DNA of 64,000 nt, from NCBI GenBank assembly GCA_052390515.1, contig JBQTGV010000044.1:15619-79618 (forward strand), given 5' to 3'. Below the pieces are notes generated by a model. That model was not told the origin of the DNA and searched no databases. It saw only the letters and a program-made list of their open reading frames with translations. The DNA comes from Candidatus Eiseniibacteriota bacterium. GTDB lineage: Bacteria > ARS69. The position numbers and the translations under genes are program-made. Positions 35,295 through 39,388 of this stretch are shown here, in pieces (within the stretch, counting starts at the first letter, position 1; every line of letters starts with the position of its first letter).

Positions 35295-37505
35295 TCAGCT
35301 CGCCAGCACGCGCCACACCTGCGCGACGAGGAAGCAGACCACGAGGCCCATCGCCACGGGAAGGAGCGAAGAGACCGCCGTCCACTTCGCGCTCTTCGTC
35401 TCCTTCCAGATGGTGAAGATCGTGGTCGAGCAGGGGTTGTGCAGCAGGCTGAAGAGCAGCAGGTTCACGCCGGTGAGCGCGGTCCATCCGCCGGCGCGCA
35501 GGATCTGCTCGGTGGCGGAGGCCTCCTCCAGTTCGAACATGACGCCGGTGCCGGCGCCGACTCCGTGCAGCCCCGCGGTCATCACCGTCAGCATGAGGAT
35601 CGTCGGCACGATGATCTCGTTCGCGGGAATGGCCACGATGTAGGCGAGCAGGATGACCCCGTTGAGGCCGATCAACAGGCCGAAGGGGTCCATCGCTCCG
35701 ACGAGGTGCCCGGCGACGCTGTCGCCGCCGACGTTCACGTTGCAGATGATCCAGGTCACCGCGCCCGCCGGAGCGGCGAAAACGATGGCTCGCCACAGCA
35801 CGAAGATGGTGCGATCGATCAGCGACGTGTACAGCGTCTGGAGGATGCGCGGCGGCCGGTACGGCGGCAGCTCCAGGCTGAACGCGGACGCTTCGCCCTT
35901 GAGCACGGTGTGCGAGAGCGTCCAAGACACCGCGAAGGTCAGGAAGACGCCCACCAGTGCCACGCCCACGACCGTCCCGGCCGAGGCCAGCCCCGCCCAG
36001 TGCACCGGCACGAGCCCGCCCACGAAGATCGACGCGATGAGGATCTGCGTCGGCCAGCGCCCGTTGCACAGCGAGAAGTTGTTCGTGATGATGGCGATGA
36101 GGCGTTCGCGCGGGCTGTCGATGATGCGCGTGGCGATGACACCGGCGGCGTTGCAGCCGTAGCCCATGGAGAGCGTCAGCGCCTGCTTGCCGTGTGCGCC
36201 GGCGCGGCGGAAAAAGCCGTCCAGGTTGAAGGCGACGCGCGGCAGGTACCCGAAGTCTTCCAGCAGTGTGAACATGGGGAAGAAGATCGCCATCGGCGGG
36301 AGCATCACGCTGATGACCCAGGCGAGCCCGAGATAGGTTCCGTCGATCAGCACGCCGTCCAGCCACCAGGGGAGGCCGGCGTCGGCAGCCAGCCCTTTCA
36401 AGAAGGGATGGCCCTTGTCCACGAGCAAGTTGGCGATCATCCCGGACGGCACGTTCGCCCCGATCACCGTGATCCAGATCACGAGGCCCAGAAGGGCGAG
36501 CATGATCGGGATGCCGAACGTGCGGCTCGTCACCAGGCGGTCGATGGTCCGATCCATGTCGAAGCGCGGCTTCTCGCCGCTGGGCGTGACGGTGCGCTCC
36601 GCGATCCGCGCCGCGTCCGAATAGATGGCCTGCATCAACGAGTCGTGGAACTGCGGTCCCACTTCCCAGCGCAGCGCGTTGGCGTGCTCCAGCACGTTGC
36701 CGGGGTCCGCGCCGGGAGACGCCTTGCCGAGCCCCCGCGTCCGCACGGCCTCGGTGATGGCCTCGTCGCCCTCGAGCAACCGCATGGCCACCCAGCGGCT
36801 GTTGGGCAGCTCCGGGAAGACGTCGCGGAGGCGAAGGGCGACGTCCTGCACGGCGCGGTCGTACGCGGGAGCGAGCGACGCGAGCCGGTGAGGCTTCGTG
36901 GCCGTGACTCCCGAAGCGATCTCGCCGACGGCGGCGAGCAGGTCGCTCATTCCTTCGCCGGAGCGCGCCGACGTGGCCACGACGGGGACGCCGAGATCCC
37001 GCGCGAGCCGGCGCGGATCCACGGTCATGCGGTGGCGCTCCGCCTCGTCCATCAGGTTGAGGCACACGACGACCCGATCGGTGATCTCCAGCACCTGCAG
37101 CACGAGATTCAGGTTCCGTTCCAGGCAGGTGGCGTCGACGACGATCACGGTGACGTCGGGTTGGCCGAACAGGATGAAGTCCCGCGCGATCTCCTCGTCG
37201 GTGCTGGCCGAGAGCAGCGAATACGTCCCCGGCAGATCGACGAGCTTGAAGCGCCGGCCGCCGAACGAGAAGCCGCCCTCGGCGCGCGTCACCGTCTTGC
37301 CCGGCCAGTTGCCGGTGCGCTGCCGAAGGCCGGTCAGGTTGTTGAAGACGGTGCTCTTGCCGGTGTTGGGATTCCCCGCCAGCGCCACGACGTGATCGAA
37401 GTTCGTCATGTTCACGCCGAGGCGGACGAGCCCCTCCGCGTTGTGCAGCGGGCACGTCGCGCAGGTGCTGTCCGCGGGCTTCGCCGCTTCGATCTTCGCC
37501 GACAT
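35295..37505 (-). CDS. feoB: Ferrous iron transporter FeoB (N-terminal GTPase plus polytopic membrane domain)
   Basis: G1 motif 'ALAGNPNTGKST' and G-protein motifs (DLPGTYS) are present, followed by a long multi-TM permease domain. The start could be an internal Met. Confidence 0.85.
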   Translation of the reverse strand: MSAKIEAAKPADSTCATCPLHNAEGLVRLGVNMTNFDHVVALAGNPNTGKSTVFNNLTGLRQRTGNWPGKTVTRAEGGFSFGGRRFKLVDLPGTYSLLSASTDEEIARDFILFGQPDVTVIVVDATCLERNLNLVLQVLEITDRVVVCLNLMDEAERHRMTVDPRRLARDLGVPVVATSARSGEGMSDLLAAVGEIASGVTATKPHRLASLAPAYDRAVQDVALRLRDVFPELPNSRWVAMRLLEGDEAITEAVRTRGLGKASPGADPGNVLEHANALRWEVGPQFHDSLMQAIYSDAARIAERTVTPSGEKPRFDMDRTIDRLVTSRTFGIPIMLALLGLVIWITVIGANVPSGMIANLLVDKGHPFLKGLAADAGLPWWLDGVLIDGTYLGLAWVISVMLPPMAIFFPMFTLLEDFGYLPRVAFNLDGFFRRAGAHGKQALTLSMGYGCNAAGVIATRIIDSPRERLIAIITNNFSLCNGRWPTQILIASIFVGGLVPVHWAGLASAGTVVGVALVGVFLTFAVSWTLSHTVLKGEASAFSLELPPYRPPRILQTLYTSLIDRTIFVLWRAIVFAAPAGAVTWIICNVNVGGDSVAGHLVGAMDPFGLLIGLNGVILLAYIVAIPANEIIVPTILMLTVMTAGLHGVGAGTGVMFELEEASATEQILRAGGWTALTGVNLLLFSLLHNPCSTTIFTIWKETKSAKWTAVSSLLPVAMGLVVCFLVAQVWRVLAS

Positions 37506-38534
37506 CTACGCGACCTCCGGGAGGCGCTCGATCTGGATCATGCGCGCCTGATCATCGCGCAGCGCGATGAGGCTTCCCCGCACCCGGTACGCGGTTGGGT
37601 CCCCGCCGGGACTCTCGAGCTCGGCTTCCACCTCGGTGCCGGGCAGCAGCCCGAGGTCCAGCAGCCGCCTGCGCTGCAGACCGCGGCAGGACGGGGCGAG
37701 GTGCAGGACGCGGCCGCGTTCGCCAGGAGACAGCCCGGCGAGCGTCTCGAACGGCCCGGGCATCCCGATCTCCCTGGGCAGCGCCACGAAGGACACGTTG
37801 GCGGCGACTACCGGCGCGAGGATGTGCTCGTCGCCGTCCGCCCAGAAACGCATCCGCTCCGGCGAAACCTCGAACATCTGCACGCGCATCCCGGGATGCA
37901 GCCCCTCGGCGACGAGCTGCGCGTAAACCTCGCGAGGCTCGTCCTCGATGTGCACGATCGTCCCCAGGTCCCCGACGCCGAGCGCGGTCAGCGGCTGCCC
38001 GCGCCAGGGCGGGAGCTCGCCGGCCGCGGTGGGGATCGGATCTCCGTGCGGGTCGTAGCGCGGGTGACCCATCCGGGCCGCCAGGCGGTCGGCCTCCTCG
38101 GGCGATAACGTGTGCTCTCGGAGCTCCGCCTCGGCATGCCAGTCGACTTCCGGAACGCTGGTCTCCTCGGCGAGGTGCCGCTCCCAGAGCCGGTGAACGC
38201 GGACCACGTGGAGCGCGTGCTCCTGCCCCTCGGGGGTCAGGCGGAGCGCTTCGCCCTCCCGCCGCGCGAGGCCCCGCGCCTCGATCAGGGCGATCAGCTC
38301 CGCGGCTTCGCCGGCCTGGATGCCCAGCACCCCCGCGAGGCTCTGGAGCGTCGCCGGATTCCCCCGGTAGTCGGCCTCGTGCAGGTGCTTCAGCGCGTCC
38401 TCCAGCCGGACGCGCTCGCCCGCCCGGCGGAGCACCCTCCATCGCCAGAAGAGTCCGCGTTCCGGCCAGAACAGGGCGGCCACGAGCCCGAGGACCAGAA
38501 GCGAAATCAAGAGGTCGGCAAGCGGCGAGCTCAT
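37506..38534 (-). CDS. Membrane-anchored DtxR-like HTH protein fused to two FeoA (SH3-like) domains, immediately upstream of feoB
   Basis: The N-terminal TM helix is LLISLLVLGLVAALF. The DtxR-like helix-turn-helix and dimerisation region is present (TLQSLAGVLGIQAGEAAELI...). There are two FeoA-like segments (LTALGVGDLGTIVHI...; LAGLSPGERGRVLHL...). Its stop abuts the feoB start. Confidence 0.6.
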   Translation of the reverse strand: MSSPLADLLISLLVLGLVAALFWPERGLFWRWRVLRRAGERVRLEDALKHLHEADYRGNPATLQSLAGVLGIQAGEAAELIALIEARGLARREGEALRLTPEGQEHALHVVRVHRLWERHLAEETSVPEVDWHAEAELREHTLSPEEADRLAARMGHPRYDPHGDPIPTAAGELPPWRGQPLTALGVGDLGTIVHIEDEPREVYAQLVAEGLHPGMRVQMFEVSPERMRFWADGDEHILAPVVAANVSFVALPREIGMPGPFETLAGLSPGERGRVLHLAPSCRGLQRRRLLDLGLLPGTEVEAELESPGGDPTAYRVRGSLIALRDDQARMIQIERLPEVA

Positions 38535-38600
38535 CGGCTATCGTGTCTCCCGGGCGTCCCGTCGATCATCGGCAGGCCGAGCGCCTTTACGAAGTGTGAA

Positions 38601-38617
38601 TTTAGGTTATCCTAAAT
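38601..38617. promoter_or_regulatory. AT-rich palindrome TTTAGGTTATCCTAAA resembling a DtxR/IdeR/MntR-type operator half-site (TTAGGTTA...)
   Basis: It is an inverted repeat TTTAGG-TTAT-CCTAAA in the divergent intergenic region between the dtxR-like gene and the feo operon. It is conspicuously AT-rich in a 70% GC context. Confidence 0.5.
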
Positions 38618-38710
38618 GTGGAGTCAAGGGGCGCGCCCCCCGCTGGTCGGGAGGCCGGCGGTGCCGCCCCCCGGAGAGACGAGGGAGACGGCCCTCCCAG
38701 GGAGACGCAG

Positions 38711-39388
38711 ATGAGCCCGCGCGCCAGCACCGAAGCGGTCGACGACTACCTCAAGATCATCTTCGCGCTCACGCGGGAGGGCGGACCGGCTTCCACCGGG
38801 GAGGTCGCGGCCCGGCTGGGCCTCACCCCGGCCTCCGTGACCGGCATGATCCAGCGCCTCGCTGCGCAGGACCGCCCGCTGGTCGAGTACTCCAAGAACC
38901 ATGGCGCGACGCTGACCCAGGCCGGCCGGGAGCGGGCCCTGGAAGTGATCCGGCACCACCGCCTGCTGGAGACGTTCCTGCACGAGACGCTGGGGATCTC
39001 CTGGGAGCGCGTGCACGAGGAGGCCGAGAAGCTCGAGCACTATATCTCCGAGGAGCTGGAGGATCGGATCGCGGACTACCTGGGGAACCCGGAGGTGGAT
39101 CCGCACGGATCGCCCATTCCGGCGAAGGACGGCACGATTCCGCGGGCGGGACGCAGGTCACTGGTCGAGCTCGCCCCGGGGGCGAAGGCCACGCTGGGCC
39201 GCGGACCCGTGGGCGAACCGGAGCTGCGCGCGTACCTCGAACGGATGGGACTCGTCCCGGGCGCGCGCATCGTCCTGGAATCGATCGAGCCGTTCGGCGG
39301 CCCGGTGTACGTTCGCGTCGGGGACGAGCGGGTCGGGCTCGGACCCGACGTGGCGCGTCGCGTTCCTGTCGTTCCGGATCCCGACTAG
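38711..39388 (+). CDS. DtxR/IdeR/MntR-family metal-dependent transcriptional regulator with a C-terminal FeoA/SH3-like domain
   Basis: Characteristic N-terminal 'DYLKIIFALTREGGPASTGEVAARLGLTPASVTGMIQRL', metal-binding 'HEEAEKLEH' region and C-terminal SH3-like domain are present. Confidence 0.8.
   Translation: MSPRASTEAVDDYLKIIFALTREGGPASTGEVAARLGLTPASVTGMIQRLAAQDRPLVEYSKNHGATLTQAGRERALEVIRHHRLLETFLHETLGISWERVHEEAEKLEHYISEELEDRIADYLGNPEVDPHGSPIPAKDGTIPRAGRRSLVELAPGAKATLGRGPVGEPELRAYLERMGLVPGARIVLESIEPFGGPVYVRVGDERVGLGPDVARRVPVVPDPD

Follow-up and report, generated by a model that had tools for sequence, protein, structure and literature searches.

A membrane-anchored DtxR-like protein with two FeoA domains precedes feoB and may control FeoB beside a soluble DtxR/MntR-type regulator

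Introduction

What does a protein built like a transcriptional regulator do when it is anchored in the membrane and encoded in the place normally taken by feoA? This question is raised by a locus in a 64,000-nucleotide stretch of DNA from a Candidatus Eiseniibacteriota bacterium (assembly GCA_052390515.1, contig JBQTGV010000044.1; the whole stretch is called the window, and positions are counted from its first letter). In this locus feoB is preceded by a gene for a 342-amino-acid (aa) protein, here called X, that joins an N-terminal hydrophobic helix, a DtxR-like module and two FeoA domains, and a soluble DtxR-family protein, here called S, is encoded divergently. An earlier, sequence-only reading of this DNA had proposed an integrated metal-sensing and Fe2+ uptake unit with an unusual, membrane-tethered regulator.

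The analysis described below shows that the locus is a real, coherent metal-uptake unit, and it slightly favors a two-layer arrangement for divalent metal (Fe2+ and/or Mn2+), in which S would repress transcription and X would control the FeoB protein. The features on which this proposal is built are as follows.

35295-37505, minus strand: feoB, 736 aa, with a G domain, a cytosolic helical domain, two Gate domains and FeoB_C
37506-38534, minus strand: X, 342 aa, membrane-anchored DtxR-like protein with two FeoA domains
38600-38617, no strand assigned: operator-like near-palindrome ATTTAGGTTATCCTAAAT, 18 nt, with the core TTAGG-N4-CCTAA
38711-39388, plus strand: S, 225 aa, soluble DtxR/MntR-type (DR2539-like) metalloregulator, divergent from X-feoB

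X as the source of FeoA in feoB operons

As the sequence-only reading had proposed, X lies in the position of feoA and is coupled to feoB: the junction reads ...GCG TAG ATG TCG..., with the X stop codon TAG abutting the feoB start codon ATG. In all 74 genome loci with a full-length match to X, which represent more than 8 phyla, feoB lies directly downstream on the same strand, and in 22 of them the two reading frames share 4 nt at the X stop and feoB start. The feoB product of the window matches PF02421 (FeoB_N), PF07670 (Gate, twice), PF07664 and PF17910 (FeoB_C) in Pfam, and it scores 374.7 bits against TIGR00437, above the NCBIfam equivalog cut-off of 315.65. The parts of X, from its N-terminus, are the following.

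38466-38525, minus strand: transmembrane helix, residues 4-23, followed by an FWPxRGxFWRWR juxtamembrane motif
38238-38414, minus strand: degenerate winged helix, residues 41-99, with its fold retained in a structural model
38025-38237, minus strand: metal-binding/dimerization-type domain (PF02742), residues 100-170
37779-38003, minus strand: FeoA/SH3-like domain 1, residues 178-252, equivalent to the third domain of DtxR
37524-37745, minus strand: FeoA domain 2, residues 264-337, the FeoA-proper module

Two stretches of X match PF04023 (FeoA; E=2e-21, 76.4 bits against a cut-off of 23), the best of which spans residues 264-336; the NCBIfam FeoA model NF007106 matches residues 280-338, and the region of FeoA domain 1 is covered by a Foldseek alignment over 215 columns to the MntR structure 5zr6. 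A tblastn search with the FeoA domains of X detected no separate feoA in either the 64-kb window or the other loci, Actinomycetospora chlora JCM 17979 (L072:4968-6840) being the exception. There, an S-type dtxR gene is followed by feoA and then by feoB, all unfused: the regulator is a 239-aa DtxR/MntR-type protein with a canonical helix-turn-helix (HTH), the 76-aa FeoA starts ~80 nt past its stop codon and is 62% identical over 42 residues to FeoA domain 2 of X, and the FeoB carries the same N-terminal extension as X-linked FeoB. This arrangement resembles an ancestral, or else a split, form of the X fusion. Because feoB always follows X, a separate feoA is otherwise lacking in the sequences searched, and the A. 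chlora FeoA resembles the second FeoA domain, X probably supplies the FeoA of X-feoB operons, as a fusion that has an unfused counterpart.

X is therefore like FeoA, whether stand-alone or fused to FeoB as in Bacteroides fragilis FeoAB (PMC8980893), in that an SH3-like domain lies directly before feoB, is translationally coupled to it, and is the sole source of FeoA in the operon. It differs from FeoA in being fused to a metal-sensor module and an anchor, rather than being free or fused to FeoB, and in its length of 342 aa, compared with ~75 aa for the soluble stand-alone protein.

The label ‘unusual’ does not survive a wider search. When 5.8 billion proteins were searched with X, more than 7,000 matches were obtained; the best 120 are nearly all 335-359 aa long, contain the same two Pfam domains, and carry the source names ‘DtxR family Mn-dependent transcriptional regulator’ or ‘FeoA domain-containing protein’. 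The family comprises 399 clusters among 50%-identity representatives at E<=1e-30, and, with one genome taken per species, relatives of X occur in at least 596 species from phyla that include Acidobacteriota, Gemmatimonadota, Chloroflexota, Ignavibacteriota, Calditrichota, Verrucomicrobiota and Bacteroidota. Culturable carriers include Maribacter caenipelagi and M. polysiphoniae (L025, L046) and Melioribacter roseus (L068). The X-feoB arrangement is widespread, not rare, and it has a characterized relative in PgMntR (PMC4805248).

X keeps its metal module but not its DNA-reading surface

To ask which DtxR-like properties X retains, 65 X proteins and 38 soluble S-type paralogs from the same loci were aligned with DtxR. 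The metal-binding domain of X matches PF02742 (Fe_dep_repr_C) over residues 100-169 (E=4e-23, 81.6 bits), and the predicted metal-ligand positions are H114, E118, H133, E137, E140 and H141, plus D46 in helix 1. Among these, H114, E118, H133, E140 and H141 (equivalent to DtxR H79, E83, H98, E105 and H106) are retained in 65 of the 65 X proteins, DtxR M10 is replaced by D (X D46) in 62 and DtxR C102 by E (X E137) in 51. A DPHGDPIP motif is also invariant (65/65), helix α1 holds the invariant residues E45, D46, K49 and H50, and the metal/dimerization domain is the best conserved portion of X (0.67). Pairwise identity in this domain is 0.56 in both X and S, so that the two groups are equally diverged here; elsewhere X is less conserved than S in the HTH (0.30 versus 0.40) and more conserved in FeoA domain 1 (0.38 versus 0.26) and helix α1 (0.52 versus 0.43).

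This pattern bears on another account of X, namely that it is a FeoA attached to the inert remnant of a fused regulator, whose DtxR-like part serves only as a spacer or anchor and does not sense metal. Such an origin would be in keeping with the frequency of domain fusions between neighboring genes, the existence of an unfused dtxR-feoA-feoB order and the decay of DNA-binding features described below. We nevertheless regard an inert remnant as very unlikely, because the unbroken retention of the ligands and of DPHGDPIP, the conservation of the metal/dimerization domain, and a helix α1 that is more conserved in X than in S together point to purifying selection on metal binding by X.

The overall fold of the regulator is predicted to be intact. 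An AlphaFold2 model of X built with 119 sequences (mean predicted local distance difference test score 88.5) contains, in order, a helix at residues 4-22, a helix at 28-56 that runs straight into DtxR helix α1, a winged helix, a dimerization-type domain and two SH3-like domains, and its closest Foldseek match is Mycobacterium tuberculosis MntR 5zr6 (template-modeling score 0.90, target-normalized; root-mean-square deviation 1.8 Å), followed by IdeR, SloR, ScaR, DtxR and DR2539. X thus shares its fold and metal ligands with the canonical DtxR, IdeR and MntR proteins, and is unlike them in its membrane anchor, its second FeoA domain, its decayed DNA-reading surface and a partly polar dimer interface.

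The loss at the DNA-reading surface is visible at several levels. PF01325, the Pfam model of the DtxR DNA-binding domain, finds no match in X at E<=0.01 and weakly matches only 6 of 22 X-family members, all at E>=0.0026. In the architecture put forward by the sequence-only reading, the transmembrane helix, PF02742 and the two FeoA domains (PF04023) are upheld, whereas the proposed DtxR-like HTH is, in the structural model, a retained fold rather than a DNA-binding domain supported by a hidden Markov model. The recognition helix of X is variable where S-type proteins share the consensus x-P-A-S-V-T-x-M-x-K-K, the wing is one residue shorter and is without Y56, K58 and Y59, and Tyr11 is replaced by Ala. 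At 11 DNA-contact positions, which comprise the contacts in the DR2539-DNA structure (bioRxiv 10.1101/2024.02.12.579695) and neighboring conserved wing positions, S-type proteins keep 9.5 of 11 residues and X proteins 2.1 of 11, and the net charge of the HTH region is -0.8 in X versus +2.2 in S (p=6e-8). The idea that X acts as the regulator where S is absent was rejected, as X proteins from loci that lack a neighboring S gene do not have a more canonical HTH than the others (2.2 versus 2.1 of 11).

Because its DNA-contact residues are lost and variable and its HTH is net acidic, while the neighboring S protein keeps these contacts, X is unlikely to be a DNA-binding regulator, contrary to the earlier description of it as a membrane-tethered regulator. 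With the metal ligands kept, the DNA contacts lost, and conservation distributed differently in X and S, selection in X appears to have shifted away from the reading of DNA and toward metal binding and the FeoA domains.

S and a conserved operator

S, in contrast to X, has the sequence features of a bona fide DtxR/MntR-type protein. It matches PF01325 (43.9 bits, cut-off 26), PF02742 (110.5 bits) and PF04023 (one SH3/FeoA domain), all above their cut-offs, in agreement with its initial identification as a divergent DtxR-family regulator with a FeoA/SH3-like tail. Its best NCBIfam match is the Thermus-type MntR (199 bits, below the cut-off of 350 for that model), and it resembles DR2539 of Deinococcus radiodurans (8pvt/8pw0) and M. 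tuberculosis MntR (5zr4/5zr6) in its set of three domains, its metal ligands and its DNA-contact residues. Across the S-type proteins, the ligands H79, E83, E105 and H106 are retained in 38 of 38, H98 in 35 and E102 in 29. The start of S is most likely the ATG at 38711, because a GGGAG lies 6 nt upstream and a 225-aa gene is called in L081, a metagenomic relative whose X is 96% identical; a start at GTG 38618 is unlikely. With the ATG start, the region between X and S is 176 bp long (38535-38710). An S-type gene adjoins X-feoB in about half of the loci, where it is co-directional and upstream in ~25, divergent in 5 and elsewhere in the locus in ~6.

The region between X and S contains the near-palindrome together with the following candidate promoters.

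38599-38627, minus strand: sigma-70-like promoter of X-feoB, TTGACT (38627-38622), 17 nt, TAAATT (38604-38599)
38586-38613, plus strand: possible promoter of S, TTTACG (38586-38591), 16 nt, TATCCT (38608-38613), recognized by eye

The sequence-only reading had placed the palindrome at 38601-38617; the element itself was recovered, with amended boundaries, as the 16-mer TTTAGGTTATCCTAAA at 38601-38616, which extends to an 18-nt sequence at 38600-38617. The 18-nt sequence is unique in the 64 kb (0 matches are expected in shuffled sequences), and further operator copies, which were sought as members of a local regulon, were not found in the window at <=1 mismatch. The palindrome fills the spacer and -10 element of the X-feoB promoter, which is the only promoter-like match in 35000-39600 (shuffles give 0.2). 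The plus-strand hexamers match 8 of 12 positions, below the threshold of the scan, overlap the palindrome and are within the block conserved in L081; they may form a promoter of S. In L081 the block TTGACT-palindrome-CGTAAAG is essentially invariant, with the palindrome and both hexamers unchanged and a few substitutions between them, while the remaining spacer is heavily diverged; this conserved block is a phylogenetic footprint.

The same element recurs far beyond these two close relatives. In 71 loci, promoter zones were taken as the 200 bp ahead of X, or ahead of an S gene at the head of the operon or alongside it. These zones, 21.5 kb in all, contain 29 copies of TTAGG-N4-CCTAA (<=1 mismatch), versus 2 in the other 651 kb, a ~440-fold enrichment, and with the positions that flank the search pattern the consensus grows to ATTTAGG-N4-CCTAAAT. 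The 19-bp iron box is made up of two overlapping dimer-binding units. When compared with the DtxR/IdeR iron-box consensus TTAGGTTAGGCTAACCTAA (PMC4598388, PMC7174319), the site in the window matches 13 of 14 bases at positions 1-14, which correspond to one TTAGG-N4-CCTAA unit, whereas the full 19-bp double palindrome TTAGGTTAG(G/C)CTAACCTAA is not found, as 38602-38620 matches 12-13 of 19. The X-feoB operator is thus a single 14-18 bp palindrome, unlike the 19-bp double site. The suggestion that the palindrome resembles a DtxR-family operator is borne out by this match, by its conservation across phyla and by its overlap with a promoter, and we consider the palindrome a DtxR-type operator-like element that is conserved across phyla before X-feoB operons. 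Since a near-invariant operator calls for a near-invariant reading head, which S has and X does not, S is the probable reader of this site.

Perfect or near-perfect copies were also seen away from X in two loci, one (L053:158-171) several kb upstream of X and 3 kb upstream of the S gene, and the other (L008:1041-1054) directly before an S gene that lies 4 kb upstream of X, which hints that S-type regulators control additional genes. No riboswitch or other RNA element was matched in the whole window at Rfam gathering thresholds. A GC-rich imperfect inverted repeat (38628-38670, plus strand; 15-nt arms, 73% complementary) lies in the presumed 5' untranslated region of S; it is not conserved in L081, has no Rfam match and is likely compositional.

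Membrane anchor and topology of X

The anchor of X is a family-wide property. In X, residues 4-23 form a strongly hydrophobic stretch (Kyte-Doolittle 2.6 over 17 residues). Among 120 close homologs, 119 have such a helix at the N-terminus (the remaining one is encoded on a 982-bp contig), as do ~85% of 150 family representatives at 50% identity. The ~15% of these representatives that are without the helix (P0179, P0191, P0205, P0233, P0234, P0251, P0253, P0256, P0259, P0269, P0270) retain the X-type ‘EDALKH’ helix 1 and a degenerate HTH, as PgMntR does, and some of them may reflect mis-called starts. Lysine and arginine are distributed asymmetrically around the helix: on average 0.07 such residues are found in the ~4.6 residues before it and 5.1 in the 20 residues after it, and the excess is C-terminal of the helix in 119 of 119 X sequences. 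Because the positive-inside rule thus gives the same answer in 119/119 cases, X is predicted to be oriented N-out/C-in, with its DtxR-like and FeoA domains in the cytoplasm, on the same side of the membrane as the G domain of FeoB.

A model for two-layer control

These features can be combined into a scheme in which uptake of divalent metal would be controlled at two levels. At the level of transcription, a metal-loaded S dimer would bind the TTAGG-N4-CCTAA palindrome (38600-38617) and, when metal is plentiful, would block the X-feoB promoter at its -10 and spacer and probably also the divergent promoter of S itself. At the level of the transporter, X would be made together with FeoB through coupled translation and would stay at the inner membrane through its N-out/C-in anchor helix, where its C-terminal FeoA domain would provide FeoA function in the absence of a separate feoA. 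The DtxR-derived module of X would still bind metal and would no longer read DNA, so that X would act as a sensor that binds FeoB: its metal occupancy would alter how the FeoA domains engage the cytoplasmic G domain, and the presumed direction of the effect on transport would be that of a fast feedback.

In evolutionary terms, the scheme implies that a DtxR-fold sensor was repurposed from DNA binding to membrane-localized allosteric control of FeoB (a ‘sensor-FeoA’ that would respond to cytoplasmic Fe2+/Mn2+ and switch the transporter post-translationally), while a duplicated soluble paralog, S, kept the transcriptional role at a shared ancient operator. We hold this more specific proposal tentatively, at slightly less than an even chance.

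PgMntR and the case for X as a repressor

The sole characterized relative of X is PgMntR (PG1044) of Porphyromonas gingivalis, which has a DtxR module and two FeoA domains and is encoded in the operon of the manganese transporter FeoB2 (PMC4805248). It is like X in the order of its domains, in sharing an operon with a feoB gene and in the motifs ED.LK, HRLWE.YL, H.EDEP and CRG..RRRLLDLG (read from S1 Fig of PMC4805248 against our X alignment). It is unlike X in being soluble and 310 aa long, with a start just past the position of the anchor helix, and in having Cys rather than Glu at the position of DtxR residue 102; in addition, PgMntR was treated as a repressor (PMC4805248), whereas at the X locus a separate canonical repressor is encoded next door. 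Among the homologs in that figure, those from Formosa, Melioribacter, Cytophaga, Ignavibacterium, Roseiflexus and Anaerolinea have X motifs and visibly hydrophobic N-termini and are of the X type, while the PgMntR, Prevotella and Tannerella sequences are without a hydrophobic N-terminus. PMC4805248 makes no mention of a membrane helix in PgMntR homologs, and our literature search for membrane-anchored DtxR-FeoA proteins turned up only this paper; X belongs to the PgMntR-like subfamily, with a previously unreported, family-wide membrane anchor and with a decayed DNA-binding surface.

PgMntR is also central to the chief competitor of the scheme above, in which X is a membrane-tethered transcriptional repressor whose winged helix sits on the palindrome or on another site and couples metal in the vicinity of FeoB to transcription, with S as a second regulator. 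Membrane-bound transcription factors such as ToxR and CadC exist, and the model of X includes a complete DtxR fold with its winged helix. Furthermore, 35 of 71 loci lack an S gene within 5 kb, and in 11 of these the operator is still directly upstream of X, although in such genomes an S-type gene may be encoded elsewhere. Most directly, in an electrophoretic mobility shift assay PgMntR at 0.7-1 µM shifted a 385-bp fragment of its own promoter (PMC4805248). Two further points concern how X itself is interpreted. The 11 contact positions are specific to a subgroup, with Corynebacterium diphtheriae DtxR keeping 5 of 11, so that the low score of X is suggestive and not conclusive. In addition, 6 of 14 hydrophobic dimer-interface positions of DR2539 (DtxR 89, 90, 104, 107, 112 and 119; X ~124-154; window ~38073-38165) are polar or charged in X, where the S paralogs have hydrophobic residues. 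X may therefore not dimerize in the way that is canonical for DtxR, or may have a different partner, and its oligomeric state is uncertain. All of these observations weigh against control of FeoB by X as the explanation of the locus, and the PgMntR shift, though atypical of a repressor, is the chief one, since by analogy X might bind DNA as well.

On balance, we consider a repressor role for X unlikely. The binding by PgMntR was weak and metal-independent: the shift was obtained without metal and persisted in 1 mM ethylenediaminetetraacetic acid. The recognition helix and wing of X are variable and net acidic and have lost their contacts, yet the operator is nearly invariant across phyla, and PF01325 stays below threshold in X. 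Finally, helix α1 of X (28-56) runs on uninterrupted from the membrane helix, and in DR2539 the N-terminal end of α1 touches the DNA backbone, so by analogy with DR2539 the extension and the membrane would occupy the place of the DNA. The two-layer scheme, with S at the operator and X at FeoB, remains the reading that we prefer.

Iron or manganese

Which metal would this unit import? The sequence-only reading had assigned Fe2+; metal uptake is supported by the analysis, and the specificity for Fe2+ is not. The primary-site ligands of X and S form a D/E/E/H set, which is of the Mn type or a dual Mn/Fe type (residue assignment per PMC4805248), and both proteins have Lys at the position of MntR E11, as in DR2539. 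A rival to the Fe2+ label, though not to the architecture described above, is that the unit imports Mn2+ and is a FeoB2-like manganese system under MntR-type control. Besides the ligand set, this possibility draws on the best NCBIfam and PDB matches, which are Mn sensors (Thermus-type MntR, 5zr4/5zr6 and DR2539), and on PgMntR, which shares an operon with FeoB2, to which manganese transport in P. gingivalis is ascribed. Against it stand the responses of these same relatives, as DR2539 responds to both Mn(II) and Fe(II) (PMC3327659) and PgMntR binds both metals (PMC4805248), and the score of the transporter, which exceeds the equivalog cut-off for the ferrous iron transporter FeoB. The Fe2+ label is therefore not secure, and a FeoB2-like role in Mn2+ uptake is about as likely; for import of Mn2+ in place of Fe2+, our own estimate lies somewhat, but clearly, below an even chance.

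FeoB extension and neighboring genes

The FeoB proteins of X-feoB operons, that of the window included, have an N-terminal extension of ~30 aa before the G domain and its P-loop, which carries a conserved C-x-x-C-P-x-H-N...L-x-(K/R)-L-G motif.

37443-37463, minus strand: C-x-x-C-P-x-H motif, FeoB residues C15, C18, P19 and H21

A CxxC is found at the same position of FeoB in 60 of 70 X-feoB loci; in some FeoB proteins of Gemmatimonadota the cysteines are absent and the ‘LVRLGL..RWD’ portion is retained. We know of no E. coli-type FeoB with this motif. The extension may form a small site for metal, or may serve as a peptide on which the SH3-like FeoA domains dock. An inter-subunit metal site formed by the CxxC of FeoB and the Cys of the ‘CRG..RRR’ motif of X was considered and dropped, because the two do not co-occur: both are present in 22 loci, only the CxxC in 38, only the Cys in 3 and neither in 7.

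Beyond S, a gene for a HAD-family hydrolase (39557-40258, plus strand) follows on the same strand, with a counterpart at 4442-5143 in L081. Its place downstream of S is conserved in L081 and on the P0002 contig, the two closest relatives, where a polysaccharide-synthesis/MatE-like gene comes next, and it probably has no part in metal uptake. On the feoB side, the locus is flanked by genes for an ECF sigma factor (PF07638; 32956-33654, minus strand) and a 450-aa NHL-repeat protein (33857-35209, plus strand); L081 also has an ECF sigma factor at this end, with a different secreted-type protein, so that the neighborhood is partly conserved.

Significance

The role of FeoA and the post-translational control of FeoB are long-standing questions for the main prokaryotic Fe2+ importer. 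The X family is a natural experiment in this respect, since it contains a FeoA that is covalently joined to a metal-sensing module and pinned at the membrane beside FeoB, and the view that FeoA is a regulatory switch responding to cytoplasmic metal becomes testable through mutants of the ligand site.

There are also consequences for annotation. The designation ‘DtxR family transcriptional regulator’ is probably wrong for most members of the X family and would inflate predictions of regulons, and PgMntR is re-framed as an atypical, anchor-less offshoot of this family. At the same time, TTAGG-N4-CCTAA provides a usable motif with which the regulons of S-type proteins can be predicted across the phyla that carry X.

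The X family dominates in environmentally important but poorly studied phyla. If the proposal of a sensor-FeoA is correct, FeoA would gain a defined regulatory function, and this form of FeoA would be the rule in the Acidobacteriota, Gemmatimonadota, Chloroflexota, Ignavibacteriota and many Bacteroidota.

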